NCBI GenBank assembly: GCA_017405445.1
Contig: JAFRAK010000007.1
Span: forward strand, 28,321 to 92,320
Length of the DNA: 64,000 nt
DNA from: Bacilli bacterium
GTDB lineage: Bacteria; Bacillota_I; Bacilli_A; RF39; UBA660
Reading direction: 5' to 3'
The notes under the pieces were generated by a model that made no database searches, was not told where the DNA came from, and worked only from the letters and a program-made list of their open reading frames with translations. Positions 24,369 through 64,000 of this stretch are shown in pieces. Position numbers and translations under genes: made by a program. Numbering within the stretch: the first letter of the stretch is position 1; each line of letters opens with the position of its first letter.

Positions 24369-24470
24369 AAAATAATCTATGATATAATAAAAATGATAAG
24401 GAGATATACTAAGGATTAAAAAAAGAAAAAGTAGAAATAAAAATAATAGAGAAAAAATAGAGAGGTTTAT

Positions 24471-25253: not shown

Positions 25254-25254
25254 A

Positions 25255-25473: not shown

Positions 25474-25597
25474 AAATTATTATAAGACTAAATAAAACTT
25501 TTATATTATTACATTTAAAAGTTATATTTACCTTTTTAATAATATTGACTAATCATAATAGCTATTTTATAATCATATTAAAGATAGGAGAAGTATT

Positions 25598-26277: not shown

Positions 26278-26390
26278 TATTGAAAAAATAAAAGAATTGT
26301 CAATAAATGACAATTTTTTTTGTATAAATATAATTATAAAGAAAAAGTATTATAGAATATGTTATAATAATAACTTTGAGGAGGAATAAT

Positions 26391-41479: not shown

Positions 41480-42631
41480 ATGGAAGAAGATATAATGATG
41501 GATAGAAAAAACGTATTAACAATGAAACTATTACATTATTTCATTACAGAAAAGAATTATAATCCTATCATTTTACAAGGTGTTGAAAATGAAATTTGGT
41601 TAGAAAACCTTGAAGAAAATTGTAAAGTAGTCCGTATAGTTTCCAACTATATACATAATGATGAACAATTTGACTTTGATGTTTTTAAGACAAAAAGAAT
41701 TGTAAAAAAGATTAAGAAAAAAACATTATCTTTGAGTATTAATGTAATGAGTATTTTCTTAGATATGAGTGATAATGTAAAAGAAGATATTAATATAGAT
41801 CCAAAATTAATATGTATTAATGTAAAAGATGAAAAAGATATTCAAAATAGTTCTATTATTAAAAATATATTTCCAGATTTATCAAAAAAAATGGTATATA
41901 CAGAAAATGGTGTAGAATTATTTATGAAAATTACTAGTGATATTAATAAACATAATAAAGAAGATGCAAAAAAATTAGAAGAAATATTTAAAAGTAAAGT
42001 TCCATATATAACTTATTTTTTAATTATTATTAATTGTATATTTTTCTTTGTACCAATATTATTTGGACAATATGATGATATATTAAGTAAGTTCTGGATA
42101 TATGGACCTAAGATACGTGGAGGAGAATATTATAGATTACTTACTGGTATTTTCTTACATGGAAGTATTATGCATTTACTATTAAATTGCTATTCTCTAT
42201 ATATTATTGGTTCTCAAATTGAAAGTTTCTTAGGAAAATGGAAATATATTATTATTTATTTATTCTCTGGAATAACAGGAGCACTCCTTTCAATAACATT
42301 AAATGGAATGATTCCATCAATTGGAGCTAGTGGAGCAATCTTTGGACTTATGGGATCTTTATTATACTTTGGATATTATTATAGAGTATATTTAGGAAAC
42401 GTAGTAAAATCTCAAATCATTCCATTAATTGTATTAGAACTTTCGATGGGATTCTTATCAACGGGAGTTGATAACTTTGCTCATATAGGAGGTTTAGTCG
42501 GTGGAATTATTATCACTATGGCTCTAGGAGTAAAAGATAAAACAACGAATTTTGAAAAAGTAAATGGATGGATTGTTACTGGTATATTTTTCATATTCCT
42601 GATATTCATGGCATTTGTTTTAGCAAACTAA
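41480..42631 (+). CDS. Rhomboid-family intramembrane serine protease with N-terminal cytoplasmic extension
   Basis: GASGAIFGLMGS (GxSG) and AHIGGLVGG catalytic His in 6-TM core. Confidence 0.8.
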   Translation: MEEDIMMDRKNVLTMKLLHYFITEKNYNPIILQGVENEIWLENLEENCKVVRIVSNYIHNDEQFDFDVFKTKRIVKKIKKKTLSLSINVMSIFLDMSDNVKEDINIDPKLICINVKDEKDIQNSSIIKNIFPDLSKKMVYTENGVELFMKITSDINKHNKEDAKKLEEIFKSKVPYITYFLIIINCIFFFVPILFGQYDDILSKFWIYGPKIRGGEYYRLLTGIFLHGSIMHLLLNCYSLYIIGSQIESFLGKWKYIIIYLFSGITGALLSITLNGMIPSIGASGAIFGLMGSLLYFGYYYRVYLGNVVKSQIIPLIVLELSMGFLSTGVDNFAHIGGLVGGIIITMALGVKDKTTNFEKVNGWIVTGIFFIFLIFMAFVLAN

Positions 42632-51378: not shown

Positions 51379-51849
51379 ATGGGAAATAAAAATACAGTTT
51401 ATTTAACACAACAAGGATTAGATGATTTAAAGAAAGAATTGGATGAATTAATTAATGTACGTCGTCCTGAAAATATACAAGCAATTAAGGAAGCACGCTC
51501 TTTAGGAGATCTTTCTGAAAATGCAGAATATGATGCTGCAAGAAATGAACAAGCTCAAATTGAAGGAAGAATTAAACAATTAGAAAAAATGTTAGAGAAT
51601 GTTTCTATTATTGCAGATGTAACAACTGATACAGTAGGAATTGGAAATACAGTTTCAATTAAATATGTAGATGATGATGAAGAAGACGAATATAAAATCG
51701 TTGGAAGTCAAGAAGCAGATCCATTTGAAAGTAAAATTTCTAATGAGAGTCCTATTGCTCAAGCTTTATTTGATCATAAAGTAGGAGACATTGTAACAGT
51801 AGAAAGTCCTAATGGAAGTTACGAAGTAGAAATTATTGAAATAAAATAA
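51379..51849 (+). CDS. greA: Transcription elongation factor GreA
   Basis: LTQQGLDDLKKELDEL...GDLSENAEYDAARNEQAQIEGRI coiled-coil plus FKBP-like C-terminus. Confidence 0.9.
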   Translation: MGNKNTVYLTQQGLDDLKKELDELINVRRPENIQAIKEARSLGDLSENAEYDAARNEQAQIEGRIKQLEKMLENVSIIADVTTDTVGIGNTVSIKYVDDDEEDEYKIVGSQEADPFESKISNESPIAQALFDHKVGDIVTVESPNGSYEVEIIEIK

Positions 51850-51875
51850 GGAAACCGAAAGGTTTCTTTTTTTTA
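51850..51875 (+). terminator. Rho-independent terminator
   Basis: GAAACCgaaaGGTTTC followed by T8. Confidence 0.75.
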
Positions 51876-51981: not shown

Positions 51982-53544
51982 GTGGATAGTATGATTATAC
52001 GTAAACCATATGCATTCTTAATTAAAAATTTTCGTAAAATTCATATTGTATTACTAATCGTAGGACTTTTCTTGTTCTATAAAACAATTGATGTTGCGAG
52101 ATTTGTAAATGATTTTATGAGTTTTGGAGTATATGACGCCTATGTAAATCCTATTTCAAAGCATATTACATTCTTAATGCGTTTTTTAATTTTTTTAATG
52201 ATTGTAGGAAGTGCATCTTTAGGATTGGTTTTAAGACACAAACATAAACCATGGAAAGAATACATATTTCCAACTGCATTGTATTTATTATTATTTTTTA
52301 CAGTAGGAATGATTAAGAGTTTCTTTAATAGCTACACAGAATTAGTAGATACTGCCAATCTTCGATTATCTAGAGATTTACTATTAATATTTTTGTTTGC
52401 ACAACTACCGGCTTTAGTAATCTTTATTGCGAGAGTACTTGGTTTTGATATGAAGAGATTTCATTTTAATCTAGATTTGGAGCAACTAGAATTAAGTGAA
52501 GAAGACCGAGAAGAAATAGAAATTGGATTAAAAATTGATAAGTATACTTTTGTAAGATGGTGGAGAAAGTTTAAACGTAATTTAGGTTATTTTTATAAAG
52601 AACATAAAAAACTAAGTATTCTAGTACTTGGTGTTTTAGCGTTTTTATTACTAAGAAATATCTATATTACAGTATTTGTTTATAATCGTTCTTATAAACA
52701 AGGACAATTATATAGTTTTAATGGATATACAATTACTGTAAAGAATTCCTATTATACAGATAAAGATCATAAAGGACAAATTATTAGTAATGATAGTAAC
52801 TTTGTAATTGTAGAAATGGAAGTTAAAAATAATCATCGTGCTAGAACGATTGATACTTCTAAATTTCATTTAAAAGCCGGGACAAAAGATTTTACTACGA
52901 CAGAAACAACTTATGCCTCTGAATTTGAAGATTTTGGAAAATGTTATAGTAAAGTAAGACATCTTCAAAAAGATGAAACACTAAATTTTATAATCGTTTA
53001 CAAAGTAAATAAAAATATCAGAAAAGGAAGATTTGTCTTATTCTATCAAGAAGATACTGGTATTTTTAAACTTAGAAAAATCAAACTAAAAGTAAAAGAT
53101 TTAAGGAGAATGGAAAAAGCTAGAACTTTGAAATTAGGAGATTCCTTTGCTTTAGATATTAAAGATAAAGAAGATACAATTAGTTTTGATTCTTATGAAA
53201 TCCTTTCAAGTGTAGATTATAAAATGAATAAATGTACAACAACAGAATGCAACATTATAACAGAAACTTATTATGCTCCAGAAGGATATAAAATTCTAAA
53301 ATTAGAGTTTTCATCAGACGACCTAGAAGCCAAAAACGTCATTGACTTTTTGCTCAAGTATGGTACAATTGATTATAAGGATACTAAGAATGAGGATGCA
53401 AGTATGGACATGACAATAGCCGTAGATAAAAACTACTTCGGTAAAGATGTTTATATCAAGATTCCACAAGAAGTAGAAGCATCTGAAAAGATAGATTTCC
53501 ATTTTGTTATTCGCGATGACGTAATAATCTATCAATTGATATAG
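51982..53544 (+). CDS. Polytopic membrane protein (about 6 TM in N-terminal 230 aa) with extracellular beta-rich C-terminal domain
   Basis: Hydrophobic helices then soluble domain. First gene of the pilus-like locus. Function unknown. Confidence 0.55.
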   Translation: MDSMIIRKPYAFLIKNFRKIHIVLLIVGLFLFYKTIDVARFVNDFMSFGVYDAYVNPISKHITFLMRFLIFLMIVGSASLGLVLRHKHKPWKEYIFPTALYLLLFFTVGMIKSFFNSYTELVDTANLRLSRDLLLIFLFAQLPALVIFIARVLGFDMKRFHFNLDLEQLELSEEDREEIEIGLKIDKYTFVRWWRKFKRNLGYFYKEHKKLSILVLGVLAFLLLRNIYITVFVYNRSYKQGQLYSFNGYTITVKNSYYTDKDHKGQIISNDSNFVIVEMEVKNNHRARTIDTSKFHLKAGTKDFTTTETTYASEFEDFGKCYSKVRHLQKDETLNFIIVYKVNKNIRKGRFVLFYQEDTGIFKLRKIKLKVKDLRRMEKARTLKLGDSFALDIKDKEDTISFDSYEILSSVDYKMNKCTTTECNIITETYYAPEGYKILKLEFSSDDLEAKNVIDFLLKYGTIDYKDTKNEDASMDMTIAVDKNYFGKDVYIKIPQEVEASEKIDFHFVIRDDVIIYQLI

Positions 53545-53552
53545 GAGGAATT

Positions 53553-55364
53553 ATGCAAGATAAGTTTAGAGCATTAAAATTAATTCTTGTATTAGTAATT
53601 GTCGGCATCTTTGTATGGTTCTTAGTATTATCTCCTATGATAACTTTCCAAAGAAATGAAAAAATAATGGAAGATGCAGCAAGAAGATATTTCGAACTAA
53701 ACAGTGATGAACTGCCTACCGGAGAAAGAGTAAAAACTCTTTCTTTAAGTGTTTTATTTAAGAAGTCTTATATTAAACAAGACTTTTATGCACCAATTTC
53801 AAACAAAGCATGTTCTGTAGAAAACAGCTGGGTAAAAGTTAAACAAGAAAATGGGAAGTATCGTTACTATGTGTATCTTGACTGTGGAACTTTTACATCT
53901 AATGTTGATCATAAAGGACCAGTCATTAAATTAAATGGAAAAGAAGAAATGTCAGTAAACATAGGAGAAGAATTCACAGATCCTGGAGTAGATAGTGTAG
54001 TAGATGAACATGATGGAGTTATGGATGCATCAAATGTTACTGTAAAAGGAGAAGTTGATACTTCAAAAGTTGGAACATATGAAATTAATTATTCTGCTTC
54101 TGATAATTTTAATAATAAATCAACAGTTACTAGAGTAGTAAAAGTTGTGAAAGTATTAAGCAGTGTTATTTCTAAAGAACTAAACGGAGAAACAAATTTT
54201 AAAGGAAATCCAACAAATAACTACATTAGATTATCAAATATGTATTTCCGCGTACTTGGTTTAGATGAAAATAATAATATTATCATGGTTGCGGAAGAAG
54301 ATGCTGCGAATGTTTCATATGATAAATTAGAAAAATGGCTTGATGAAGTATATATTCCTCATTTTACAAAAAAAGCACAGAAATTATTAGTAAAAACAAA
54401 ATACTGTAATATGGCAGTTCCAGAAAATGAAATTGATTCAGTTTCTCAATGTACAGAATATACAGATCAAAGATATGCCTATGTACCATCAGTTCTAGAT
54501 ATTAATAGTACACAATTAGATAATAATAATTTCTTAAAACCAGTTACAATATCATGGACTGCGAATAATAAAGATGACAAAGAAGCATATGTCATAAGAA
54601 ATGTTTTCTTTGGAAATGAATATGGAAAAAATTATATTACAGTAAATTCTACATATAATTATGGAGTTAGACCAAAATTAGTAATGAAAGGGGATGCTCT
54701 TGTTACAGATGGAGATGGTACTCACGATAATCCATTTGTATTTGGAGAAACAAAGCCTGCTAAGGGAGGAACATTACTGAATAAACGTTTCACTGGAGAA
54801 TATATTACAATTAATGGATTTGAATGGAGAATAATAGAAACTCTTCCAGATGGAACAACAAAAGTAATAAGTGATGATACTTTAGGTACAGATAATGAAA
54901 GACCTACAACATATTCCAATCCTGAAAAATCGACAATTGTTTATGATCCAGAAGATAAAGAAAGCTATGCTTACTTTATAAAAAATAAATCTAGTAAATT
55001 TATTGATACAAAATTATTAATCAAACATGAAGTAGAGATACCAGTTTATAAAAATGAAATCAGATATAAAGAGGAGACAAAAATAAAAACTTATAAATTA
55101 AAAGTATCTCCTCCAAATATGTTTGATATGTTTAGTGCTCAATCAAATACTAGAGAAGGAAAAAAATCACATTCTTATTGGTTAAGCAATACTTCTAACT
55201 CAAAAGATAGAATTGCAGGAGTAATTTCAGATATCGGTGTAGTATTAAATGAACCAATTCAAAAATATGGAATGTATGGAATAAGAGCAGTTGGTTATGT
55301 AAAAAGTGATACGGTTATTACAAGTGGAAAAGGAACAAATCTCTCTCCATATAAGTTAAAATAG
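53553..55364 (+). CDS. N-terminally anchored extracellular protein with DUF5011-type Ig-like domain and two copies of the GVRP...GDG..NP[FY] C-terminal module
   Basis: HKGPVIKLNGKEEMSVNIGEEFTDPGVDSVVDEHDGVMDASNVTVKGEVDTSKVGTYEINYSASDNFNNKSTVTRVVKV fits the DUF5011 pattern. Confidence 0.6.
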   Translation: MQDKFRALKLILVLVIVGIFVWFLVLSPMITFQRNEKIMEDAARRYFELNSDELPTGERVKTLSLSVLFKKSYIKQDFYAPISNKACSVENSWVKVKQENGKYRYYVYLDCGTFTSNVDHKGPVIKLNGKEEMSVNIGEEFTDPGVDSVVDEHDGVMDASNVTVKGEVDTSKVGTYEINYSASDNFNNKSTVTRVVKVVKVLSSVISKELNGETNFKGNPTNNYIRLSNMYFRVLGLDENNNIIMVAEEDAANVSYDKLEKWLDEVYIPHFTKKAQKLLVKTKYCNMAVPENEIDSVSQCTEYTDQRYAYVPSVLDINSTQLDNNNFLKPVTISWTANNKDDKEAYVIRNVFFGNEYGKNYITVNSTYNYGVRPKLVMKGDALVTDGDGTHDNPFVFGETKPAKGGTLLNKRFTGEYITINGFEWRIIETLPDGTTKVISDDTLGTDNERPTTYSNPEKSTIVYDPEDKESYAYFIKNKSSKFIDTKLLIKHEVEIPVYKNEIRYKEETKIKTYKLKVSPPNMFDMFSAQSNTREGKKSHSYWLSNTSNSKDRIAGVISDIGVVLNEPIQKYGMYGIRAVGYVKSDTVITSGKGTNLSPYKLK

Positions 55365-55378
55365 AAAGGAAATGTATT

Positions 55379-56209
55379 ATGAGTGGTAGAAAAAAAGTTT
55401 TATCAGAAAAGTTAAAAAGGTATAATGTGATTTTACTGGTACTGTTAGGTATTCTAATTGTAGGACTAACAATAATGTTAGGCGTAAAACTATTTTATAA
55501 TGATAGTTATTATCGAACAGTAAGTAGAAAAGAGAATATTAAAAAGTCTCAAAAACTAGATACAAATGATTATTCGACAATAGGATGGATTAGAGTACAA
55601 GGAACCAATATTGATTATCCATTATATGGTGTTGTACAAGATACCTTTAAATATCCAGTTACAGAATCCTATCTATGGTCTCTAAATATGGATAAAGACT
55701 ATCACAATGTAATGATAACATATGGACATAACATTATGAATTTAGGAGCTAATCCAAGTAGGAAAGATGAAACATTTACAAGAATGGAAGAATTAATGTC
55801 TTATGTTTATTATGATTTTGCGAAAGAAAATAAATATCTTCAATTAAGTATGAATGATAAAGATTATTTATATAAAATATTTGCAGTAAACTTTATGTAT
55901 GTTGCAGATTTAAATGAATATCCAGAAGGAGAATTTAAACAAGAAGAAAGAAATAAATATGTTGACAGATTATTAAAAGAATCTATTTACGACTATGATG
56001 TTAATATTCAAGATGATGATAACATCTTATCAGTAGTAACCTGTTCAAGATTCTTCGATGATGGAAAAAATTATGATTTCATAGTAACTGGTAGACTTGT
56101 AAGACCAGGAGAAAAAATAGATAATTATAAAGTTAGTAGAAATAAAAACTATACAGTTGTTGATGAAGCCATGAAAGGGGAGATAAACAATGAAGAAGAA
56201 ATTGCTTAA
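55379..56209 (+). CDS. srtB: Class B sortase
   Basis: Alignable to S. aureus SrtB: IGWIRVQGTNIDYPLYG, ITYGHN (His), LSVVTCS (Cys), VTGRLVR (Arg). N-terminal TM. Confidence 0.75.
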   Translation: MSGRKKVLSEKLKRYNVILLVLLGILIVGLTIMLGVKLFYNDSYYRTVSRKENIKKSQKLDTNDYSTIGWIRVQGTNIDYPLYGVVQDTFKYPVTESYLWSLNMDKDYHNVMITYGHNIMNLGANPSRKDETFTRMEELMSYVYYDFAKENKYLQLSMNDKDYLYKIFAVNFMYVADLNEYPEGEFKQEERNKYVDRLLKESIYDYDVNIQDDDNILSVVTCSRFFDDGKNYDFIVTGRLVRPGEKIDNYKVSRNKNYTVVDEAMKGEINNEEEIA

Positions 56210-58871
56210 TAAAATATTTATAATTGCTATAGCGGTTGCTTTATATAGTATAGTACTCCCTGTATCTGCAGAAGAAACAATCTGTCCTGATGGAGAACTT
56301 AGCGGAGTAGATGTAGCACAAAGATATGGTATTTCTCTATCAAAAGAAGAAGGAAACTCTTATAAATTAAAAATGAATCCACCAAGTAATACAGAAGAAA
56401 GATGTAAAATGAAATTTAAAGTATCTAAAATCAATGGCAATGATGTTACTATTGATGATAGATTAAGCTGTAATGAATTAACTCTTCAAATTGATGGTAC
56501 TACAGAAGATACAGTATATGGTCTTCCTGGAATAATCATAGAATTAACAAATGAAGAGAAAATTATTAAGAATGAAAATGAGTCTGGATCATGTTATTTT
56601 CAAAATGCAAAAGTAGAATTAACGTATATTCATGCTGAACCTGAAGTCAAAACAATTACATGTGCAGATCCTAATTATGAAGATTCTACTTTATTAATCC
56701 CAACAATTGATTGTGATAATAATACATATAAAAAAGGAAATGATTTTATCACAATAGAACCAGGTAGTTTCGAAGATAAATTCTGTTATGCCAAAAGAAA
56801 TGCCGGAACAAATTATTCATTTGATTTTCACACAAATCCAAATGATCAAGGAAAACAACTAGATTTTAAATGTGAATCAGATTTGGATAGTGGAAAAATT
56901 CCTCTAAAACAAGAAGATTTAGAAGGAGAAAAATATTACGTTAATAAAAACTATCTTTATGGAAAAAATATTGAAACAATAACAGGAGAAAGATATATTT
57001 ATAACTATGCTCCAGGGGATGAAGTAAAAACTGATCCAATCTCATGCGAAGTAACATGTGAAGAATCAGTTGAAGTGGAATATGGACCACCAGTAGCTTC
57101 AAAAGCAGGAATGTGTTTTGAATATAAAGTAAGAGTTACAAGTAGAACAAGTTGTCACATTTCAAAACTACCAGAAAAACCAAGATCAGATTGTAGTTAT
57201 TGTAATCCAGCTCCTGTCTGTGAAAGTGCCAATGGTAGTGTATGGCAACAAGGTGGACCTAATGAAGAATTTGATGCATGTATTAGAAGTTGTGATGGTG
57301 GAAAATATACTAAAAAATGTTCTAATAAATGTTATAAGAAAGTATATGCATCAAAAACAAGTACAAATCAAAATAATGTTGTTGTAAGAAAACTAAGTAT
57401 GACTACAAATGAATGCTTAAATCTAAATCCAGAAGGATGCTATTACAAGAGTAATGGTAATATTCTATGGCAACCAGGAACTTATACAGAAGGTAGATGG
57501 TATTTTGAAGCTCAAAATCCAAAATACTACTCACCTGGTGCACCATATATAGCATTTGCAGACGGCTTCTTTAGACGTGTATATGCAGATGGAAGTGTAT
57601 GTAATGACTCTTGCCATTGGACAGGATGTTCTGGTCAATATCTAAATCCAAATATAGCAAAAATAGATCTTGAAGAAAATGCTAAGAAATATAATAAAGT
57701 AATCACAGCTTGTAAAGCAAAAGCTTCATGTTCAACAACTACAGCAGAATTTACAATTTCTGCAGATTATACACCTGAGGGAAAATCAAAAGTTACAATT
57801 AACTTCCCTTATGATAATCAAAAAGATACAATTACTCATAATAATTCAACAGTAACAGATACTTCAGAAAATGCGAATACAACATTACTACCAAATGATC
57901 CTACACCAGGAGATGGATTATGGGGTTGCTATAAGAAAAACGATTCACAAGAAAACTTATATCGTTCTACATGGAGTTTCCCAGGTACATGGATTAATGG
58001 AAAAACAGGAGAGATTTCATTCTCACCAAAATCAACAAGTAATCCATCATGGAGAGAACATAATGATAAATTCTGTATACCAGCTGATGCTGAACGTGTA
58101 AATAGTGATTGGTGGAACTGGTATAACAATAAATTAATTGGATTAAATAATTTAACTTTATCTGCTAATACAGATGCGACTGTTAAAGATAAATGTGAAA
58201 ATGTAACAACAAAAACAGTTTTAGATCCAGGAAAAGTTGATTTATCAAAAATTATATATAATATTCATGCTCAAACACAAAAATTTGGATATTTTGATTG
58301 GAATATAGGAATGCATTGTTTCTATGCATTAAATCCTAAACCAACAACTCCAACAACACAAACTTCAATATCTGAAGAAGAACAAAAAGCATGTGTTCCA
58401 ACTACAGAAAACTATCGTGTCAGAGCAGTAGATTTGGAAAATGTATTCCCAGCTTTAGATGGTTCAACTGCACAAACAACTACTGAAGCAGGAAGAACAC
58501 CAGGATTTAACTGGTCAGAATATGCTGAAAATACAAAAAATGAGAAATATACAAGTAATCCAAAGAAATACTTAGAAAAGGTACAATCTCTTGGATATGG
58601 AGTATATGATGAAGGAAATCTTGATTATGAATTTACATTATCACCACAAACAATCCGCAATATGAGAAGTAATTCTTCAGGTGCTTACTCAGGTACTAAC
58701 TATACAAATTTTGATGATAGTGGATTCTATGTAGATTCTAACGGAGTATCAAGATATAAGAGTAATAAGATACGTTCTTTATCTGGAAGCAATAAACTTC
58801 CAACAGATAATGCATTATTATGTAATAACATGGTAAATTATAATTCATCAAACTGTGATATAGCAGGATAA
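56190..58871 (+). CDS. Large (893 aa) Cys-rich secreted protein, translationally coupled to the sortase gene. Candidate adhesin or pilus-associated protein
   Basis: Signal peptide MKKKLLNKIFIIAIAVALYSIVLPVSA/EE. Over 40 Cys. 20-nt overlap with srtB. No canonical C-terminal sorting signal. Confidence 0.65.
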   Translation: MKKKLLNKIFIIAIAVALYSIVLPVSAEETICPDGELSGVDVAQRYGISLSKEEGNSYKLKMNPPSNTEERCKMKFKVSKINGNDVTIDDRLSCNELTLQIDGTTEDTVYGLPGIIIELTNEEKIIKNENESGSCYFQNAKVELTYIHAEPEVKTITCADPNYEDSTLLIPTIDCDNNTYKKGNDFITIEPGSFEDKFCYAKRNAGTNYSFDFHTNPNDQGKQLDFKCESDLDSGKIPLKQEDLEGEKYYVNKNYLYGKNIETITGERYIYNYAPGDEVKTDPISCEVTCEESVEVEYGPPVASKAGMCFEYKVRVTSRTSCHISKLPEKPRSDCSYCNPAPVCESANGSVWQQGGPNEEFDACIRSCDGGKYTKKCSNKCYKKVYASKTSTNQNNVVVRKLSMTTNECLNLNPEGCYYKSNGNILWQPGTYTEGRWYFEAQNPKYYSPGAPYIAFADGFFRRVYADGSVCNDSCHWTGCSGQYLNPNIAKIDLEENAKKYNKVITACKAKASCSTTTAEFTISADYTPEGKSKVTINFPYDNQKDTITHNNSTVTDTSENANTTLLPNDPTPGDGLWGCYKKNDSQENLYRSTWSFPGTWINGKTGEISFSPKSTSNPSWREHNDKFCIPADAERVNSDWWNWYNNKLIGLNNLTLSANTDATVKDKCENVTTKTVLDPGKVDLSKIIYNIHAQTQKFGYFDWNIGMHCFYALNPKPTTPTTQTSISEEEQKACVPTTENYRVRAVDLENVFPALDGSTAQTTTEAGRTPGFNWSEYAENTKNEKYTSNPKKYLEKVQSLGYGVYDEGNLDYEFTLSPQTIRNMRSNSSGAYSGTNYTNFDDSGFYVDSNGVSRYKSNKIRSLSGSNKLPTDNALLCNNMVNYNSSNCDIAG

Positions 58872-58886
58872 GGAGGTTGATATTGT

Positions 58887-59384
58887 ATGAATAAAGGAAT
58901 ATTAACAATAGGAATAATACTACTTGCATTAATTGCACTAAACTTATTAAATGTATTAAATAATTATTCTACAGGTAGTGAATTAGATTATTACTTATTA
59001 AAAGAAACAACAGATGCTGCTATGGTAGATGCCATAGACAAATCTTATCTTAGAACTTGTGGCTTATATCGTATCGATAAAGAAAAGTTTGTTGAAAGCT
59101 TTCTTTATCGATTCGCAAGCAACATTGATGCTTCTCGTGGTTATACAGTAGGCTTCTATGATATAAATGAAGTACCTCCAAAAGTAAGTATCAAAATTGA
59201 TTCATTAACGACATTAAGTTTCAATACAGGTACGGGAGCGGAAGGAAATAAAGAAGCTGCAAACATTTCTACAAGTTATGATGCTATTCTAGAATCAAAT
59301 TATTTAACTGATACACAAACAGAAATTGGTCTTAATACAGATGATGATATGTGTAAAGACTTAAACAAGATCACTAGAAAATAA
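58887..59384 (+). CDS. N-terminally anchored small protein (165 aa), possible minor pilin or assembly factor
   Basis: Single N-terminal TM (ILTIGIILLALIALNLL). Position immediately upstream of cpaB-like gene. Confidence 0.45.
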   Translation: MNKGILTIGIILLALIALNLLNVLNNYSTGSELDYYLLKETTDAAMVDAIDKSYLRTCGLYRIDKEKFVESFLYRFASNIDASRGYTVGFYDINEVPPKVSIKIDSLTTLSFNTGTGAEGNKEAANISTSYDAILESNYLTDTQTEIGLNTDDDMCKDLNKITRK

Positions 59385-59399
59385 TATAGGAGGGATAAA

Positions 59400-60203
59400 A
59401 TGGGGAATTTAACGACAAGCTTTCGAAAATTTTTACAAAATAAAAATACGGTTACCGTAATAGGAATCGTATTAGGAATAATGGTTATCTATATTGCTTA
59501 TACTATGCGTATTAAGGCAGAGATAAATCCCATTACAGTTCCTTATGCAGCAGAGCAAATAAAAGCAGGTGCTCAAATTACAGAAAGTATGATATCTACA
59601 AGAAAAGTTCCACCTTCAATGCTAGAAGGAGAAGTTATTACAAATCTAGGAGATATTGTGGATAAATATGCAGCTGCAGATACGGTAATTCCAAAAGGAA
59701 GTTTATTCTATAAAAGATCTGTAGTAGAAAAAGAACAATTACCAGGAAATATTATCCTACAATATCCAAAAGGATATGTATTATATAATTTATCTGTAGA
59801 TACAGCCAGTACTTATGGTAATTCTGTTTTCCCTGGAAACTACATTGATATTTACTTAAAAGCAGTAAATAAAATAGAAGAAGGTAGTGGATATGGTAGT
59901 GAAGCAGATAGAGTTATGCTTGGAAAACTAATCTCTAATATTGAAGTATTAGCTGTAAAAGATAGTGCTGGACAACCAGTATTCCAAAATATAGATGAAA
60001 ATAGAACTCCAGCTATGGTAGTATTTGCCGTACCTGAAGAATACTTTATCTTACTTAAGAAGACAGAGTATATGAGAACTTATGATACATCTTTAATTTT
60101 AGTACCAACAAATGAAAGTTTAAAAGATGATCCAGCTGATTTGGAAATTAGTAGTGACCAATTAAAACAATGGATCAATGATCATACATATTGGACTGAA
60201 TAA
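59400..60203 (+). CDS. cpaB: Flp pilus assembly protein CpaB/RcpC-like (SAF domain)
   Basis: N-terminal TM then ITVPYAAEQIKAGAQITESMIS...PSMLEGEVITNLGDIVDKYAAADTVIPKGSLF, typical CpaB SAF-domain pattern. Confidence 0.6.
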   Translation: MGNLTTSFRKFLQNKNTVTVIGIVLGIMVIYIAYTMRIKAEINPITVPYAAEQIKAGAQITESMISTRKVPPSMLEGEVITNLGDIVDKYAAADTVIPKGSLFYKRSVVEKEQLPGNIILQYPKGYVLYNLSVDTASTYGNSVFPGNYIDIYLKAVNKIEEGSGYGSEADRVMLGKLISNIEVLAVKDSAGQPVFQNIDENRTPAMVVFAVPEEYFILLKKTEYMRTYDTSLILVPTNESLKDDPADLEISSDQLKQWINDHTYWTE

Positions 60204-60234
60204 TAAAAAAGAATAATAAAGAATAATAAAGGGT

Positions 60235-61998
60235 GTGAACTCCATGAATGAAAATATTTTTGACAAATTAGATTTTGGACCATTTCGTGAATTATTAGAT
60301 AATGATGATATTACCGATATTTCCTACGATAATAATGGACAGATTTGGATTAGATCATTGACACAAGGATCTATGAGAGTAGAAATTGAAGGAGCCACTC
60401 CCGAATTTGTAGAGAAATTAGCTTTTCAATGCTCGAATGTTATGGGTACTACATTTAACAATGCCAAACCATTCCTAGATGCTGAATCTGCTGAGTTACG
60501 TATGAACTTTGTACACCAAAGTATCGCTACCAATGGTATTGCTTTAGTTATTCGTAAAACTCCGGCTAAAATTCGATTATCAAAAGAAAAACTAATTAAA
60601 GAAGATTACTTTACTCCTGCTATTCATGATTTGTTAATCAAATGTGTAGAGGGACATTGTAATATTATGGTTGCTGGAGAAACTGGTTCTGGTAAAACAG
60701 AGTTTGTTAAGTATCTTGCCAGTCATACCATACAAAATGAAAAAATAATTACGATTGAAGATACACTAGAATTACACTTAGATAAAATTTATCCACAAAG
60801 AGATATTGTAGCGATGAAAACAAATAATGTAGCTAGTTATACTGATGTATTAGTTACATGTATGAGACAGAATCCAAAATGGATTTTACTATCAGAAGTT
60901 CGTTCTGCAGAAGCCGTTTCTGCCGTACGTAACTCAATATCTTCAGGACATAATATTTTATCAACAATCCATGCGGATAAAGCATCTGCTATTCCTTATC
61001 GTATGTATTCTTTAATGGAAACAGATTTGGATGTACATCAGTTCTTAACAACAATTTATCGTTACATTCAAATAGGTGTTCACATTAAAGCATTTTATAG
61101 TAAAGAATATGGACAATTTCACCGTGAAGTAGATGAAGTATGTGAATTCTTTGTTGATGATAAAAATGAACCTCAATCAAGAATTATTTATCAAAAACAA
61201 ATGGGTAAAATTATGATGTGTAAACCAAGTTATAATTTAATTGAATACTTGGAAAATCAAAATATTAGTATTCAAGAAATTATTAAAGATTTACCAGATG
61301 AGTTACCAATTACAGAACAAGAAGAATTTAATTCAGAAACAGAAAAACCTGTTGAAAACACAGAACAAAAAAACAATAATCCACAAGAAGTTGTGGAAGA
61401 AAATAATAATGAAGCAGGTACTGAAACAGTAACACCAGATCCTAATTTACCTGGTGCAAAACCAGATGAAGAAGTAACAAAAGAACCTGGGGCAGAAGTA
61501 GGAATAGCAGAATCTATTCCTGTTGTATCAGAGGATGGAAATGTACAATTAAATAATCCAGTAGTAACACCAGGAGGACTAACAACATTAGAACAACAAA
61601 TGACTCCTCCACCACAAAATACTGAACAACCATTTCAAATTCCTACAGCAGTAGAACAGCCTCCAGTTGCTCAGACAGCTCCACCAGTTACAGTAGAACA
61701 ACCAACTGTTCCTATTGCTCCACAAGAAGTTGCAGCACAACCTCCAGTAAATCCACCAGTACAACCAGCAACAGTAGAGCAACCACCTGTACAACCAGCA
61801 ACAGTAGAGCAACCACCTGTAGTACCTGGAATAGTAGCACCTCCTGTGGTAGAAGAGGCACCACCTCCTGCACCACCTGGAGTACCTGTGGCAAATAATC
61901 AATTGCCACAAGCTACAACAAATCAACAATTAATTCAACCAGTAGCACAACAAGCTATGCCAAATGTTATTCCAAATGTTGTGAGATTAGATGCATAA
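60235..61998 (+). CDS. tadA: CpaF/TadA-type secretion ATPase with about 220-aa Pro/Gln/Val-rich repetitive C-terminal extension
   Basis: Walker A MVAGETGSGKTEF. Asp-box ILLSEVRSAEA. His-box LSTIHADKA. Tail has repeats such as PVQPATVEQP. Confidence 0.8.
   Translation: MNSMNENIFDKLDFGPFRELLDNDDITDISYDNNGQIWIRSLTQGSMRVEIEGATPEFVEKLAFQCSNVMGTTFNNAKPFLDAESAELRMNFVHQSIATNGIALVIRKTPAKIRLSKEKLIKEDYFTPAIHDLLIKCVEGHCNIMVAGETGSGKTEFVKYLASHTIQNEKIITIEDTLELHLDKIYPQRDIVAMKTNNVASYTDVLVTCMRQNPKWILLSEVRSAEAVSAVRNSISSGHNILSTIHADKASAIPYRMYSLMETDLDVHQFLTTIYRYIQIGVHIKAFYSKEYGQFHREVDEVCEFFVDDKNEPQSRIIYQKQMGKIMMCKPSYNLIEYLENQNISIQEIIKDLPDELPITEQEEFNSETEKPVENTEQKNNNPQEVVEENNNEAGTETVTPDPNLPGAKPDEEVTKEPGAEVGIAESIPVVSEDGNVQLNNPVVTPGGLTTLEQQMTPPPQNTEQPFQIPTAVEQPPVAQTAPPVTVEQPTVPIAPQEVAAQPPVNPPVQPATVEQPPVQPATVEQPPVVPGIVAPPVVEEAPPPAPPGVPVANNQLPQATTNQQLIQPVAQQAMPNVIPNVVRLDA
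61761..61820 (+). repeat. Perfect 30-bp tandem duplication (acaaccagcaacagtagagcaaccacctgt x2) in the ATPase tail
   Basis: Direct sequence comparison. Confidence 0.85.
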
Positions 61999-62022
61999 AA
62001 TATTTAGAAAAGGGGTGAAATC

Positions 62023-62925
62023 ATGTACATCGAAGAATTATTTATTATTACGATATTTGTAGTGTTCTTTGTCACAATAAGAAACTATAAAGGAGATAAT
62101 TTAGGAAAATTTATTGTTGAACAAATTCAAGGGATGTATGAGAAATTCACTCCATACTCTTTTCGAGTTGTTAGAGAAAAAACAAAACAACTTGGTCAAG
62201 AATATACACCAAGACAATATATGATACAGGTATGTTTATTTGCAGGATTTGCTGGAATTGTATCTTATTTATATTTCTATAATTTGATTATTAGTATTAT
62301 ATATGCAATTGTTGCAGTATCCTTTGTACCATATTTATCTTATTTAAGATGTAAAAAAGTATATTCAGAATTTATTTTTGAACAAATACAAGTATATACA
62401 TCAAATACGATTATGGAATTTAGTACAACTCAATCTTTTGTTAAAGCTCTAGAAGGAGTAAAAGCATCAGGAGTATTAGAAGATCCTGTATTATCCGATG
62501 TTGAGCAAATGATTAGTATGTCATATGATAATGGTACAATAGATGAAGCCTTAGAATATATGAGTAGATTATATCCATACTTTATTGTTAAAAATATGCA
62601 TCAATTATTCTTACAAATTACAAAAGAAGGAGCAAGAAACTCTGCTGATTCTTTAGAAAATATGCAATTAGATATTGATATGCTAGTAGAAAGTGTTTAC
62701 CGCGATAGAATTGAAAGAGCAACCTTTCATAAAAACTTTTTACAATTTGGTATTATGTTATACTTACTTGTTATGTTAGTTCAATATTTATTAGGTAGAG
62801 AAACTTATCTACAATTACTGAATAGATGGTATATTCGTTTCTTAATGCATAGTGTTTTAATTGTAAATACATACTTCCTGATTAAAGGAGAAAAATATTA
62901 TTATGAGAATGTGGGGGCTGAATAA
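62023..62925 (+). CDS. tadB: TadB-like pilus assembly inner-membrane protein (T2SS-F domain)
   Basis: Size, TM topology (N-terminal helix, central cytoplasmic domain, C-terminal helices) and position after the ATPase. Call by context. Confidence 0.55.
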   Translation: MYIEELFIITIFVVFFVTIRNYKGDNLGKFIVEQIQGMYEKFTPYSFRVVREKTKQLGQEYTPRQYMIQVCLFAGFAGIVSYLYFYNLIISIIYAIVAVSFVPYLSYLRCKKVYSEFIFEQIQVYTSNTIMEFSTTQSFVKALEGVKASGVLEDPVLSDVEQMISMSYDNGTIDEALEYMSRLYPYFIVKNMHQLFLQITKEGARNSADSLENMQLDIDMLVESVYRDRIERATFHKNFLQFGIMLYLLVMLVQYLLGRETYLQLLNRWYIRFLMHSVLIVNTYFLIKGEKYYYENVGAE

Positions 62926-63728
62926 TGGAAATAATTATTGCAGGTGCCATTTTGATGTATGTATTTATTTATAATGGAACAATCAATAAAGATAAATTTT
63001 ATGCAGATAATCAAAAATATTTAGAGGCATTAAAAGAAGAAGATTATCAATTCTTACTCTATGCTAAATATGGAGAAGATGTTGATGTAGATAAATTATA
63101 TTCAAAAAGAATTACAATGGGAGTAATTGCATTTTTATTTGTACTCGCTATGACAATTTCTCGTAATAATTCTGTTGAAATTATAAATGCTCAATTCTTT
63201 TTAAATCTTGTTATTGCAGGACTTGCAGGAATAGGAGCATTTAAATTACCTTATTTACAACTAAAGAATTATTATAAACAGCATTTACAAGAAATTGATA
63301 TTTTGCTTCCATATTATTTAAAAAGTTTGGAAATATTAATTCAACATTATACTGTACCAGTAGCGGTAGGAAAATCGATTGCTGATGCACCTGATTTATT
63401 TAAACCAGGACTTAGAAGAATGATTGATAGAATTAATTCTGGAGACTCTTCCGTAGATCCTTATATGGAATTTGCTAATACTTATCCTGTAAGAGATTCT
63501 ATGAGAATGATGCGTTTATTGTATCGTTTAGGAATTGGTTCTCAAGAAAGAAAACAAGAAAGACTAATGATGTTTTCTAAAACGGTGTCTTCTCTTCAAA
63601 ATAAAGCAAGAGAAACAAAATACAAAGAGCGTTTAAATCATATGGAAAGTCAAACAATGATTATGTTAGTATGTACAGGTATTGGAGTTATGCTTGTCAT
63701 ATTAATTTCAATGATGATGATGTTTTAA
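62925..63728 (+). CDS. tadC: TadC-like pilus assembly inner-membrane protein (T2SS-F domain)
   Basis: Start overlaps tadB stop (ATAATGG). Similar topology. Call by context. Confidence 0.55.
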   Translation: MEIIIAGAILMYVFIYNGTINKDKFYADNQKYLEALKEEDYQFLLYAKYGEDVDVDKLYSKRITMGVIAFLFVLAMTISRNNSVEIINAQFFLNLVIAGLAGIGAFKLPYLQLKNYYKQHLQEIDILLPYYLKSLEILIQHYTVPVAVGKSIADAPDLFKPGLRRMIDRINSGDSSVDPYMEFANTYPVRDSMRMMRLLYRLGIGSQERKQERLMMFSKTVSSLQNKARETKYKERLNHMESQTMIMLVCTGIGVMLVILISMMMMF

Positions 63729-63814
63729 AATGTAAACAAAATGTTTAATGATTGTTATTAAAAAATTATTTTGTTATAATTAATTTAGAATACGAAAGGA
63801 TAGGTGATAATTAT

Positions 63815-63961
63815 ATGAAAGCAGCTACAGGTGAATTAAACTTAACAGTAATCACACTTTTGGCTATTTCTGCCGTAATTGCATTTTTCTGGTTAATGTG
63901 GCCTAGTATAAAGGAATCTATTAATACTCAGTGGAATAATCTTTCAACATACAGAGGATAG
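63815..63961 (+). CDS. Small (48 aa) Flp-type pilin-like protein MKAATGELNLTVITLLAISAVIAFFWLMW...
   Basis: AGGTGA RBS 7 nt upstream. Short polar leader ending in Gly followed by about 22 hydrophobic residues. Position after tadC. Lacks canonical G/xxxxEY motif. Confidence 0.4.
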   Translation: MKAATGELNLTVITLLAISAVIAFFWLMWPSIKESINTQWNNLSTYRG

Positions 63962-63979
63962 AATAACAGGAGGCAATAA

Positions 63980-64000
63980 ATGAAAGAAGCATACGGAGGA
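63980..64000 (+). CDS. Start of a further gene (MKEAYGG...), truncated by window end
   Basis: AGGAGG RBS 6 nt upstream of ATG 63980. Confidence 0.3.

Follow-up and report, generated by a model that had tools for sequence, protein, structure and literature searches.

The window analysed here, i.e., the whole 64,000-nt stretch of DNA, comes from RF39, an uncultured reduced-genome gut order, and ends inside a run of co-oriented genes. A preliminary description had placed ten co-oriented open reading frames in this run (520, 603, 276, 893, 165, 267, 587, 300, 267 and 48 aa), and all ten are where it put them. The features, in window coordinates (L001 coordinate + 52924), are as follows:

51848..51869, + strand: intrinsic-terminator-like hairpin (9-bp stem) and T-run, at the end of the greA transcription unit
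51982..53544, + strand: 520-aa polytopic membrane protein (5 predicted TM segments, then an extracellular domain with a weak DUF4352 match)
53553..55364, + strand: 603-aa N-terminally anchored surface protein (PF16403 Bact_surface_Ig-like, E=1e-19)
55379..56209, + strand: 276-aa membrane-anchored class-B-like sortase (PF04203 exactly at gathering score; triad H117, C222, R239 intact)
56190..58871, + strand: 893-aa secreted Cys-rich protein (signal peptide; 33 Cys, 20 invariant; no known domain)
58887..59384, + strand: 165-aa DUF5411 protein (E=6e-43; basic leader MNKG, hydrophobic helix, small alpha/beta domain)
59400..60203, + strand: 267-aa CpaB/RcpC-like protein (N-terminal TM segment, SAF domain, RcpC domain)
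60235..61998, + strand: 587-aa CpaF/TadA/FlaI-type secretion ATPase (T2SSE, E=4e-26; Walker A GETGSGKT, Asp and His boxes)
62023..62925, + strand: 300-aa TadB-like inner-membrane platform protein (GspF/PilC-fold cytoplasmic domain, 4 TM segments)
62925..63728, + strand: 267-aa TadC-like platform protein (colinear paralogue of the TadB-like protein, 18-20% identity, same TM layout)
63752..63780, + strand: promoter-like site (TTGTTA-17-TATAAT, extended -10 TG; a consensus match only)
63815..63961, + strand: 48-aa Flp-like protein (N-terminus MKAATG/ELNLTVITL invariant, then a hydrophobic helix)
63980..64000, + strand: first of two paralogous ~150-aa minor-pilin-like genes (start only, at the window end)

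These genes occupy the first 12 kb of a chromosomal cluster of 24 co-oriented genes, ~31 kb in all. The terminator-like hairpin forms its 5' border, with a 132-nt gap before the first gene, and the co-oriented string continues for ~19 kb past the window end. First come the two minor-pilin-like genes and a 340-aa gene, then two VirB2-like genes with VirB6, a VirB3-like gene and a split VirB4, and finally genes for a SpoIID-type hydrolase, a 259-aa protein, VirD4 and a DUF6273 protein; housekeeping genes lie beyond. Three modules make up the cluster: a T4SS core, a Tad-like type-IV-filament module and a fast-evolving surface cassette. Because the window cuts the locus, the preliminary description was only partly right. 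What it saw as possibly a stand-alone hybrid of Tad and sortase pilus systems is the 5' half of a T4SS cluster whose VirB/VirD4 genes lie past the window; its alternative, a secretion system, came closer, with the T4SS continuation out of that reader's sight. The ‘hybrid’ is a T4SS with a type-IV-filament module and a sortase/adhesin cassette.

The surface cassette begins with the gene for the 520-aa protein, which has orthologues (44-58% identity) at this position in L004, L005 and L095. Interspecies identity is 48-62% for the 603-aa protein, 44-64% for the sortase and 40-50% for the 893-aa protein, the most divergent product of the locus; cassette genes thus span 40-64%, whereas machine genes are 71-87% identical. 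The DUF5011 Ig-like domain reported for the 603-aa protein is recovered as PF16403, which we take to be the same family under its later name. This protein also has weak DUF6273-like regions and shares the C-terminal motif G.GT...PYK(L/V)(K/R) with the product of the last gene of the locus (DUF6273). The class B assignment of the sortase was likewise upheld: the closest solved structures are class B sortases (E 1e-9 to 1e-7), and 10 diverse homologues all retain H117, C222 (in T-C-x-R) and R239. We found 313 homologues, under the NCBI name ‘class B sortase [Bacilli bacterium]’. The placement of the sortase inside the locus, pointed out previously, is conserved in 5 other species examined, at times with duplication of the gene together with its neighbours. 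The 893-aa gene overlaps the sortase gene by 20 nt and is translationally coupled to it, and in L005 and L098 it forms part of a tandemly duplicated cassette; its product is a candidate adhesin or recognition subunit. In agreement with the preliminary description, a permissive regular expression found no LPXTG/NPQTN-type C-terminal sorting signal in the window or the related loci. No canonical sortase substrate is encoded nearby, and the ‘KLPTDN’ of the 893-aa protein is not kept in its orthologues.

The Tad-like type-IV-filament module is assigned partly from direct matches and partly by inference. Two of the earlier assignments are borne out by profiles: the CpaB-like protein exceeds the Pfam gathering scores for both RcpC (31.0 bits, cutoff 28.8) and SAF (23.5 bits, cutoff 21), with 48.5 bits against TIGR03177, under the cutoff of 71, and the CpaF/TadA-type ATPase matches T2SSE. 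The C-terminal tail of the ATPase (~250 aa, Pro/Gln/Val-rich) contains a 30-nt tandem repeat at 61753-61821 and differs in length between species (419 to 601 aa). The start of the TadC-like gene overlaps the stop of the TadB-like gene by 1 nt. Among the small proteins of the locus, three have an invariant 6-residue leader ending in Gly, followed by a hydrophobic helix. The 48-aa protein, with 31 positions invariant across 6 species and its gene found in 61 of 62 testable genomes, is a candidate major pilin on the evidence of its sequence. The ~150-aa minor-pilin-like proteins combine a 6-residue leader, M-(K/R)-(E/D)-x-x-G, with a hydrophobic segment and conserved cysteines; the filament module has two or three minor-pilin-like proteins, and the DUF5411 protein is a candidate minor-pilin-like adaptor. 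A conserved, cytoplasmic 340-aa protein stands in the TadZ position and has no TadZ profile match. At fold and superfamily level, the Tad-like assignments made previously stand; none of the small proteins of the locus matches Pfam Flp_Fap or TadE. The promoter-like site lies in the 86-nt gap 5' of the small pilin gene and is possibly an internal promoter for the major subunit; promoter-consensus matches are fewer in the region than in shuffled controls.

Homology allows the T4SS core to be assigned from its sequences. VirB4 is split into 184- and 596-aa ORFs, with P-loop_TraG, AAA_10 and DUF87 domains and 367 bits to the NCBIfam Mycoplasma-ICE VirB4 family. VirB6 scores over the gathering score for TrbL_4, and the VirD4 coupling protein matches T4SS-DNA_transf (2e-56) and NF045973 (309 bits, curated cutoff 250). 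T4SS_pilin was matched by 16 orthologues of the VirB2-like small pilins (best E=5.6e-6); a VirB3-like protein and a cell-wall hydrolase with a SpoIID domain are also present. Weak CedB/CedD-family similarities were also seen.

The Bacillus subtilis plasmid pLS20 has a conjugation operon of genes 34-54 (Val-Calvo et al. 2021, PMC8557374; Gago-Cordoba et al. 2021, PMC8092201), and within this experimentally studied operon there is likewise a block of a Tad-like ATPase, two platform proteins and a tiny hydrophobic protein. The RF39 ATPase is 35% identical to pLS20 ‘tadA’/p37 (E=4e-43), VirB4 is 24% (E=7e-36) and VirD4 28% (E=9e-59) identical to their pLS20 counterparts, and both VirD4 proteins fall in the NCBIfam CD1115 family. 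In hhalign comparisons, VirB6 matched p49 at 84.5%, and the TadB-like family matched p38 at 97.5% with a diverse phmmer-built alignment and gave no signal with a narrow lineage-only alignment. The TadC-like protein has its best match, a weak one, in p39 (E=1e-3); for TadC, DUF5411 and the small proteins against p39, p36, p40 and p41, homology was weak or absent. The two systems also correspond in layout: a secreted adhesin that lacks a sorting signal, a small protein with an N-terminal anchor (p36, of which the DUF5411 protein is the positional equivalent), two ~250-aa membrane proteins, an N-anchored protein of ~120 aa, a hydrophobic one of 47 aa, a 2-TM small protein, a p028-type VirB6, and a small 2-TM protein and a separate ~190-aa ORF ahead of VirB4, although most of the small-protein similarities are at or under detection. 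pLS20 genes 36 and 38-41 are labelled ‘unknown’ in the searchable literature. Unlike the RF39 locus, pLS20, a plasmid, has a MobL relaxase, is under quorum-sensing control and shows surface exclusion; it lacks the sortase, CpaB-like gene and 340-aa protein, all three of which RF39 has. The pLS20 adhesin is a thioester (TIE) protein whereas the RF39 candidate is Cys-rich, and VirD4 lies ahead of VirB6 in pLS20 but near the cluster end in RF39.

VirB4 relatives occur in at least 544 GTDB species, and the best 80 of these are 81-94% identical, with 79 of the 80 loci colinear. Of 62 testable loci, 61 have the Tad-like genes adjoining those of the T4SS; VirD4 occurs in 64 of 65. In all relatives examined, the locus lies between greA, directly upstream, and rmuC, in a rhodanese/dedA/rmuC downstream flank, and these flanks are identical even where the sortase is only 43-64% identical. 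Mantel correlations with RmuC (r=0.55-0.68) equal the housekeeping control, a result that is also compatible with transfer of a larger block since rmuC and the locus are physically linked. With a mean pairwise distance of 0.13 against 0.20, VirB4 is better conserved than RmuC. There is no break in GC content, and no repeats were found at the locus borders. The locus, its flanks and the window yielded neither a relaxase nor an integrase, and a relaxase elsewhere in the genome is possible. The TadB-like and DUF5411 proteins have no BLAST-level relatives on 72,556 plasmids. The fixed chromosomal site, co-divergence with the chromosome, absence of a relaxase or integrase nearby and occurrence in at least 544 RF39 species argue against a mobile element and for an organelle that has been domesticated and defines the lineage. 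We consider it probable that the cluster is a Gram-positive conjugation-type T4SS of the pLS20 class with a Tad-like filament module and a sortase/adhesin cassette, domesticated and non-mobile, and, as part of this reading, vertically inherited in RF39 with lineage-wide presence. The cluster thus looks like a domesticated cell-contact machine, i.e., Gram-positive conjugation machinery turned into a fixed chromosomal organelle of one lineage.

From these sequences we infer that the locus may form a pilus. With the minor-pilin-like proteins as primers, the ATPase and platform would polymerise the 48-aa subunit into a short wall-crossing pilus or pseudopilus. This filament could display a Cys-rich/Ig-like recognition complex that attaches to a target cell, and the sortase might covalently process or tether a component of that complex via a non-canonical signal. 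A VirB4/VirD4-powered channel would then export a macromolecule (DNA or protein); export is preferred to uptake because a coupling protein is present.

Unlikely, but deserving of real weight, is a reading without a filament, in which the CpaF/VirB11-superfamily ATPase is the ‘VirB11’ of the T4SS and the GspF-fold and small hydrophobic proteins are system-specific membrane subunits of the channel, such as an assembly platform or piston, with attachment by surface proteins only. The literature treats pLS20 p37 as a VirB11 homologue, and reviews hold that Gram-positive conjugation systems and elements make no pili. Consistent with this, the best NCBIfam score of the ATPase is to VirB11 (108 bits), the small proteins match no pilin family, and no A24 prepilin peptidase was found in the locus, flanks or window. 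Among solved structures, however, the ATPase is nearer to FlaI (1.5e-19) and CpaF (1e-18) than to VirB11 (2e-14), and it is accompanied by a TadB/TadC-like GspF-fold pair and a CpaB/RcpC protein. GspF/PilC-fold platform proteins are hallmark partners of type-IV-filament motors, and we know of no VirB11 ATPase that works with them. The leader with its invariant final Gly before a hydrophobic helix, in three proteins, also speaks against this reading. Distinctly less probable is a DNA-uptake machine like Helicobacter ComB or archaeal Ced, in which the filament captures DNA and the T4SS channel imports it. Type IV filaments commonly mediate DNA uptake, the locus is chromosomal, relaxase-free and conserved across a reduced-genome lineage, and the weak CedB/CedD-family similarities could be counted in favour; but a canonical VirD4 is retained in nearly all loci, whereas ComB has no coupling protein, such proteins recruit cytoplasmic substrates for export, and the hypervariable adhesin cassette is better suited to recognising a cell surface than to recognising DNA.

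A self-contained Tad-like/sortase hybrid that builds an adhesive pilus, with the T4SS genes as an unrelated neighbour, would account for the contiguity and co-orientation of the sortase and Tad-like genes (gaps ≤40 nt) and for the conservation of the cassette together with the Tad-like genes; we regard it as very unlikely. Least probable of all, in our judgement, is an ICE or a recent ICE remnant that has moved between gut Bacilli by horizontal spread. In its favour, the locus consists of conjugation-machinery components, the closest named families belong to ICEs or plasmids (Mycoplasma ICE VirB4, CD1115 VirD4, pLS20), and such spread would explain the very high VirB4 identity. It is opposed by housekeeping genes abutting both ends with no integrase, relaxase or border repeats, by an identical insertion context in distant species, by distances that track rmuC as well as the housekeeping control does, by the even GC content and by the plasmid search.

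The preferred reading, a domesticated T4SS with a filament module, shares features with several known systems. Tad/Flp (type IVc) loci, e.g., those of Aggregatibacter and Caulobacter and the tad locus of Bifidobacterium breve, similarly have a CpaB/RcpC-like protein, a CpaF/TadA-type ATPase, a single-domain GspF-fold platform pair, a cytoplasmic protein in the TadZ position, and two ~150-aa pseudopilin-like genes downstream of a very small major subunit. The order ATPase-TadB-TadC-flp-tadE-tadF in RF39 resembles that of monoderm tad loci. RF39 differs in the unmatched Flp_Fap, TadE and TadZ profiles, in having no TadV peptidase in the locus or window, in its leader motif (G/ELNLT vs G/xxxxEY for Flp), and in the embedding of the Tad-like genes in a T4SS cluster with a sortase alongside. 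In Roseburia, Ruminococcus and Eubacterium, also gut Firmicutes, Miller et al. describe a computationally predicted secretion operon with a CpaF-type ATPase, a PilC/GspF-type membrane protein, DUF5411 and an adjacent internalin-like putative adhesin; the description of this operon mentions neither T4SS genes nor a sortase (Miller et al. 2022, PMC9523054).

A type IV filament beside a conjugative T4SS, serving target-cell recognition, is described for the IncI plasmids R64 and TP114, where, according to that account, a thin type IVb pilus with variable tip adhesins assists a separate T4SS in liquid mating (PMC9045228). These systems differ from RF39 in being diderm and plasmid-borne, with a relaxase, shufflon-based adhesin variation and a type IVb, not Tad-like, pilus in a separate operon. 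Patescibacteria/CPR, a different phylum from RF39 (Bacillota/Bacilli), carry a chromosomal, MPF-FATA-related T4SS that is monoderm and near-ubiquitous in a reduced-genome lineage, like RF39 with tandem VirB2-like pilin genes and no associated relaxase; no CpaF/GspF-type module or sortase is reported beside virB4, and type IV pili are treated as separate (PMC12102498). It has been read as co-opted for a non-conjugative lifestyle function (PMC12102498), and the T4SS of Saccharibacteria is described as needed for epibiotic growth (PMC10633639 as cited in PMC12857230).

The ten consecutive + strand ORFs that the preliminary description had reported from position 51982 of the window onward were all present and correctly placed. 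Because the window ends inside the locus, the continuation was read from a 46-kb metagenomic scaffold (L001) that encodes the exact 267-aa protein (window coordinate = L001 + 52924). There, the co-oriented and tightly packed gene string goes on past the 48-aa gene and the window end. The whole cluster comprises 24 genes in ~31 kb. It is delimited by a strong terminator 3' of greA at 51848-51869 and, directly beyond its 3' end, by the housekeeping genes rhodanese, dedA and rmuC, and all gaps between genes within it are ≤98 nt.

Genes of the cluster in 5' to 3' order, all co-oriented on the + strand (window coordinates unless L001, or L009 from a related locus, is named)
From 51982: polytopic membrane protein
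53553-55364: Ig-like protein, 603 aa
55379-56209: sortase, 276 aa
56190-58871: Cys-rich protein, 893 aa
58887-59384: DUF5411 protein, 165 aa
After the DUF5411 gene: CpaB-like protein, then ATPase, 587 aa
62023-62925 and 62925-63728: TadB-like and TadC-like platform proteins, 300 and 267 aa
63815-63961: Flp-like candidate, 48 aa
Directly after the 48-aa gene (L001): two paralogous proteins of ~150 aa with pilin-like N-termini
After the ~150-aa pair (L001): cytoplasmic protein, 340 aa
After the 340-aa gene: two small 2-TM proteins, whose orthologues match T4SS_pilin in 16 cases (best E=5.6e-6)
After the 2-TM pair (L001): TrbL_4/VirB6-like protein, 744 aa
After the VirB6-like gene (L001): 2-TM protein, 107 aa
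L001 16588-18929, after the 107-aa gene: VirB4 ATPase as two ORFs, 184 and 596 aa
3' part of the cluster (seen in close relatives): SpoIID-domain protein, ~780 aa
After the SpoIID gene (seen in close relatives): anchored protein, 259 aa
After the 259-aa gene (seen in close relatives): VirD4 coupling protein
L009 17380-18621, last gene (seen in close relatives): DUF6273 protein, ~420 aa (~413-440 aa)

The Ig-like protein and the product of the last gene share the C-terminal motif G.GT...PYK(L/V)(K/R); since both are also N-terminally anchored, related surface proteins bracket the cluster.

The 3' half carries the core of a type IV secretion system (T4SS). VirB4 matched P-loop_TraG, AAA_10 and DUF87 above their cutoffs and scored 367 bits on NF045975, the NCBIfam Mycoplasma-ICE VirB4 family, and 177 bits on NF045971, both under the equivalog cutoffs. 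It is encoded by an N-terminal 'TraC-like' ORF of ~184 aa and a 596-aa ATPase ORF that overlap by 4 nt and that combined cover the single-chain Mycoplasma-ICE model. Because the split is kept in ~78 of 80 species, and similar ORFs of 192 and 633 aa occur in pLS20, a conjugative plasmid of Bacillus subtilis (L091 22518-25005), it characterizes the class and does not mark a pseudogene. VirD4 matched T4SS-DNA_transf (2e-56), TraG-D_C and TrwB_AAD_bind, and its 309 bits on NF045973 (CD1115 family) exceed the cutoff of 250. The VirB6-like protein scored 33.3 bits on TrbL_4 (cutoff 27), and its N-terminus matched the pLS20_p028 family at 2e-5; the SpoIID domain of the cell-wall hydrolase scored 40-44 bits (cutoff 23). 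Predicted VirB4, VirD4 and VirB6-like proteins together with a cell-wall hydrolase give the locus the features of a monoderm conjugation-type T4SS (MPF-FATA/pLS20 class).

Upstream of this core lies the Tad-like module. The 587-aa protein described as a CpaF/TadA ATPase indeed matched Pfam T2SSE (92 bits vs a cutoff of 24.9, E=4e-26), and its nearest solved structures were FlaI (1.5e-19) and CpaF (1e-18), with VirB11 behind at 2e-14. It fell below every NCBIfam equivalog cutoff, and we place the predicted ATPase with the CpaF/TadA type at the clade/superfamily level only. The CpaB-like SAF protein also held up, scoring 31.0 bits on Pfam RcpC (cutoff 28.8), 23.5 bits on SAF (cutoff 21) and 48.5 bits on TIGR03177, under its cutoff of 71; it is a predicted CpaB/RcpC protein, a feature of Tad/Flp systems. 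The two platform proteins, proposed earlier to be T2SS-F-like, matched no Pfam or NCBIfam model, the very outcome that the preliminary description had set against this assignment, but their fold is supported because the two are colinear paralogues that share one TM layout and because one of 27 full-length distant relatives reached Pfam T2SSF at 2.3e-5. We accordingly count two paralogous GspF/PilC (T2SSF)-family platform proteins, TadB and TadC, as another Tad/Flp feature. An exhaustive HMMER search recovered just 215 relatives among 1.84 billion representatives. Sequence and profile searches of the PDB gave no match for the TadB/TadC family, the CpaB-like protein or the 340-aa family, and a Foldseek search of the PDB with the predicted TadB model matched an EpsF domain, with no significant full-length match. 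The 340-aa protein, in the position where Tad loci encode TadZ (an atypical receiver domain joined to a ParA/MinD-like one), likewise matched nothing in Pfam or NCBIfam, and conserves a degenerate P-loop-like motif, 'HAGATT'.

The ATPase ends in a low-complexity tail of ~250 aa rich in Pro, Gln and Val (window 61250-61998), with a 30-nt tandem repeat (PPVQPATVEQ) at 61753-61821 and a local GC of up to 0.34. This tail is missing in some species (a 419-aa protein in the related locus L098) and extended in others (601 aa in L004). A reduced arrangement was seen in another low-GC lineage (L092 9209-14539, 29% GC, beside rplM/rpsI), in the order CpaB (32% identical), TadB (29%), TadC (28%), the 340-aa protein (39%, the best conserved of the set) and a VirB6-like polytopic protein, with no ATPase or pilin genes between the CpaB and VirB6-like genes.

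Of the candidate filament subunits, the 48-aa protein, described as pilin-like, is Flp-like in size, hydrophobic helix and position, and has the invariant N-terminus MKAATG|ELNLTVITL; against this, it matched no Pfam or NCBIfam model and lacks the signature of a Flp-family major pilin (Flp_Fap; a leader ending in G, then mature xxxxEY), the EY motif being absent. In the ~150-aa paralogues, a common 6-residue leader, M-(K/R)-(E/D)-x-x-G with invariant Gly, precedes a hydrophobic segment and conserved cysteines; these proteins gave no match in Pfam or NCBIfam, TadE included. The 165-aa protein is DUF5411 (E=6e-43), a family whose 120 nearest homologues listed all belong to the same lineage; it starts with MNKG and a hydrophobic helix, and its predicted model (pLDDT 67) has a long N-terminal helix and a three-stranded sheet. 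An A24 prepilin peptidase (TadV) was found neither in the locus and its flanks by Pfam nor in the 64-kb window by a motif scan and Pfam searches of all polytopic ORFs. Filament formation is therefore something that we infer, since the 48-aa, ~150-aa and DUF5411 proteins match neither Flp_Fap nor TadE and the locus and window hold no A24 peptidase. The resemblance of 'KAATG' to xPxTG raised the idea that the sortase cleaves the pilin leader. It was rejected: the motif has no Pro, the other pilin-like proteins do not carry it, and the leader lies in the cytoplasm, whereas the sortase domain is extracellular. Separately, a 383-aa rhomboid intramembrane protease is encoded ~10 kb upstream of the locus (window 41480-42631).

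Compared to characterized systems, the locus is closest to pLS20. Among 72,556 plasmids, the best matches to the ATPase belonged to the pLS20 family, in a gene annotated tadA (35% identity, E=1e-39). In tblastn searches of the same plasmids, the TadB-like and DUF5411 proteins had no match and the sortase found only generic SrtB (23-31%). The pLS20 operon follows the same logic, with the TIE adhesin p34, p36 (126 aa, N-anchored), the p37 ATPase, the membrane proteins p38 and p39 (267 and 245 aa), p40 (120 aa), p41 (47 aa), p45 (2-TM, 76 aa), VirD4, a p028-type VirB6, DUF5592, the 192-aa ORF and after it the 633-aa VirB4, and a relaxase. Between the two systems, VirB4 is 24% identical (E=7e-36) and VirD4 matches at E=9e-59; in hhalign comparisons, p38 matched an alignment of diverse TadB-like proteins (97.5%, E=6e-12) and p49 matched the VirB6 of the locus (84.5%), while TadC/p39 and DUF5411/p36 are best matches by position only (E~1e-3). 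In pLS20, genes 36 and 38-41 are annotated 'Unknown' and gene 37 'putative VirB11', and Gram-positive conjugative elements are held to form no pili (Val-Calvo et al., 2021; PMC8557374). The TIE adhesin has no sorting signal, the plasmid has no sortase, and how the adhesin is attached was called an open question (Gago-Cordoba et al., 2021; PMC8092201). An operon of CpaF, GspF and DUF5411 in gut Clostridia has been flagged computationally (Miller et al., 2022; PMC9523054).

The locus opens with the surface cassette. As proposed, the 603-aa DUF5011 Ig-like protein is a bacterial surface Ig-like protein (Bact_surface_Ig-like, PF16403, E=1e-19), and the sortase is class-B-like: it scored 26.6 bits on PF04203, equal to the cutoff, and its nearest PDB chains are SrtB (1.8e-9 to 5.9e-7). 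H117, C222 and R239 do not vary among ten diverse homologues, and the protein, which is closest to class B, has a sortase fold containing a His-Cys-Arg catalytic triad. It missed the equivalog level of TIGR03064 (SrtB; 47.3 bits vs a cutoff of 153.75) and is, judged by sequence, a distant and separate subfamily relative to SrtB. The 893-aa protein is secreted and Cys-rich as described, with a signal peptide and 33 cysteines, of which 20 are invariant among four orthologues, and it contains no domain known to Pfam or NCBIfam. Substrates of class B sortases, with an NPQTN/xPxTG motif, a hydrophobic segment and a basic tail, are usually encoded nearby. A permissive scan bore out the reported absence of LPXTG/NPQTN-type sorting signals, finding none in the + strand ORFs of the window or in related loci, and the 'KLPTDN' of the 893-aa protein was ruled out as an internal sorting signal since it is not conserved in orthologues. 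Canonical cell-wall sorting or sortase-pilus polymerization by this enzyme is not supported. The sortase is conserved, lacks a canonical substrate and is translationally coupled to a secreted protein rich in Cys, a combination that points to a sortase reaction that may be new.

The cassette is kept as a block (polytopic, Ig-like, sortase, ~900-aa Cys-rich and DUF5411 proteins) in all five other species examined, in two of which its inner part is tandemly duplicated, once without the sortase. Identity between species is 40-64% for the TM, Ig, sortase and Cys-rich proteins, compared with 71-87% for CpaB, ATPase, TadB, TadC and Flp and ~92% for GreA. Such fast divergence of the cassette relative to the machine is the pattern expected for a putative surface-exposed recognition module. 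Elsewhere in the window, two surface proteins (39625-40923 and 45482-47314) are almost the same in their N-terminal anchor and domain (…LIGVVYAILQANLQI.G.AKIK.NTWDIHF…) but differ towards the C-terminus, where one carries DUF6273 (5e-20) and the other DUF285/LRR repeats (6e-58); a third, of 958 aa (5778-8654), has 11 DUF285 repeats. DUF6273 also occurs in two proteins of the locus, and so may be a general surface module of the lineage.

In a scan of one genome per GTDB species, at least 544 genomes carried a relative of VirB4, the best 80 being 81-94% identical. All of these are MAGs of uncultured 'Bacilli/Tenericutes/Mycoplasma sp.' from gut or rumen, a closed 1.52-Mb chromosome among them; Ca. 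Faecimonas (= GTDB genus CAG-877) is placed in order RF39, family CAG-611. Among the best 80 loci, gene order is colinear in 79, Tad-like genes adjoin T4SS genes in 61 of 62 testable loci, and VirD4 was found in 64 of 65. An integrative and conjugative element (ICE) was weighed as an explanation for this conjugation-type core. Neither the locus nor its flanks nor the remainder of the window, which is ordinary chromosome (MnmA, iPGM, PFOR, RecG and others), has a gene of any relaxase or recombinase/integrase family. The site is fixed: mltG, a methyltransferase, two U32 peptidases, HD and greA precede the locus even where the sortase is only 43-64% identical. There is no break in GC content. Pairwise distances of locus genes correlated with those of flanking rmuC (Mantel r=0.55-0.68, p=0.001), as closely as the control dedA does (r=0.57), a co-divergence to be read with the caveat that rmuC is physically linked to the locus; Mantel tests were used instead of single-reference identity correlation, which was too noisy. 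VirB4 evolves more slowly than RmuC (mean pairwise distance 0.13 vs 0.20). The fixed site, the co-divergence, the ordinary chromosomal surroundings and the unbroken GC speak against an ICE and in favor of an apparatus that has been domesticated and is inherited vertically; together with the missing relaxase and recombinase, they point to conjugation-like machinery that, as far as is visible, is not self-transmissible.

The preliminary description had read a sortase inside a Tad-like operon as either a hybrid assembly pathway or a secretion system with substrates encoded elsewhere. That observation stands and its interpretation is supported in part: the locus most likely encodes a monoderm T4SS of the pLS20 class into which a Tad-like module is integrated, a system that has been domesticated, occurs throughout RF39 and carries a sortase/adhesin cassette. 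By homology, its predicted products are a T4SS composed of VirB4, VirD4 and VirB6 together with VirB2-like proteins and a wall hydrolase, an ATPase of the CpaF/FlaI type accompanied by two GspF-fold partners and a CpaB-like protein, and a sortase with an intact active site. In the mechanism that we propose, the ATPase and platform would build a short filament from the 48-aa subunit together with the minor-pilin-like proteins, and this filament would span the wall and present a Cys-rich/Ig-like complex to a target cell; the sortase may tether or process part of this complex, and the channel, fed by the coupling protein, would export a macromolecule. Because VirD4 is conserved, export is favored over ComB-like uptake.

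RF39 bacteria are prevalent in human and animal guts, uncultured, and have reduced genomes of ~1.5 Mb, and to our knowledge their physiology has never been characterized; our literature search found nothing specific linking RF39 to T4SS, VirB4 or pili. A 31-kb, 24-gene apparatus present in hundreds of species, with a VirB4 more conserved than a neighboring housekeeping gene, is likely central to RF39 life. A bolder reading, which we hold to be possible but rather doubtful, is that RF39 universally depends on a domesticated conjugation-type T4SS whose Tad-like filament bears at its tip an adhesin that is processed by the sortase and diversifies rapidly, and that it serves exchange through contact with other cells, be it epibiosis, parasitism or the acquisition of DNA or nutrients. 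The nearest conceptual parallel besides pLS20 is the T4SS of Patescibacteria, which is chromosomal, relaxase-less, VirB2-array-bearing, MPF-FATA-related and nearly ubiquitous there (PMC12102498), and which a 2025 review describes as needed for epibiotic growth. If true, our reading would be a second, independent case of that strategy, inside Bacillota, with the corollary that pLS20-class Gram-positive conjugation systems would contain a hidden machine for a type-IV-filament (pseudo)pilus. According to the same 2025 review, VirB11 homologues are universally absent from Gram-positive T4SSs and no pili are encoded, and this would be contradicted. The locus and, judging by homology, the pLS20 operon with its tractable genetics appear to pair a VirB11-superfamily-type ATPase with a GspF-fold platform and pilin-like subunits, a pairing that bears on the textbook claim that Gram-positive T4SSs have neither VirB11-type ATPases nor pili. 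The adhesin cassette, pilin and ATPases also offer a concrete handle for finding the partners of RF39 and for cultivation.

Two further features of the window were noted. A SAM riboswitch (RF00162, 64.6 bits; 17168-17267) precedes a 104-aa ORF (17307-17621) that matched nothing in Pfam. Positions 17675-26900 encode a 258-aa restriction endonuclease of the Mrr type and a 440-aa P-loop NTPase of the KAP family, then a 1173-aa ORF with no Pfam match (20827-24348) and several small ORFs with no assignment; GC falls to ~0.243 in this segment, which may be a defence or variable island.
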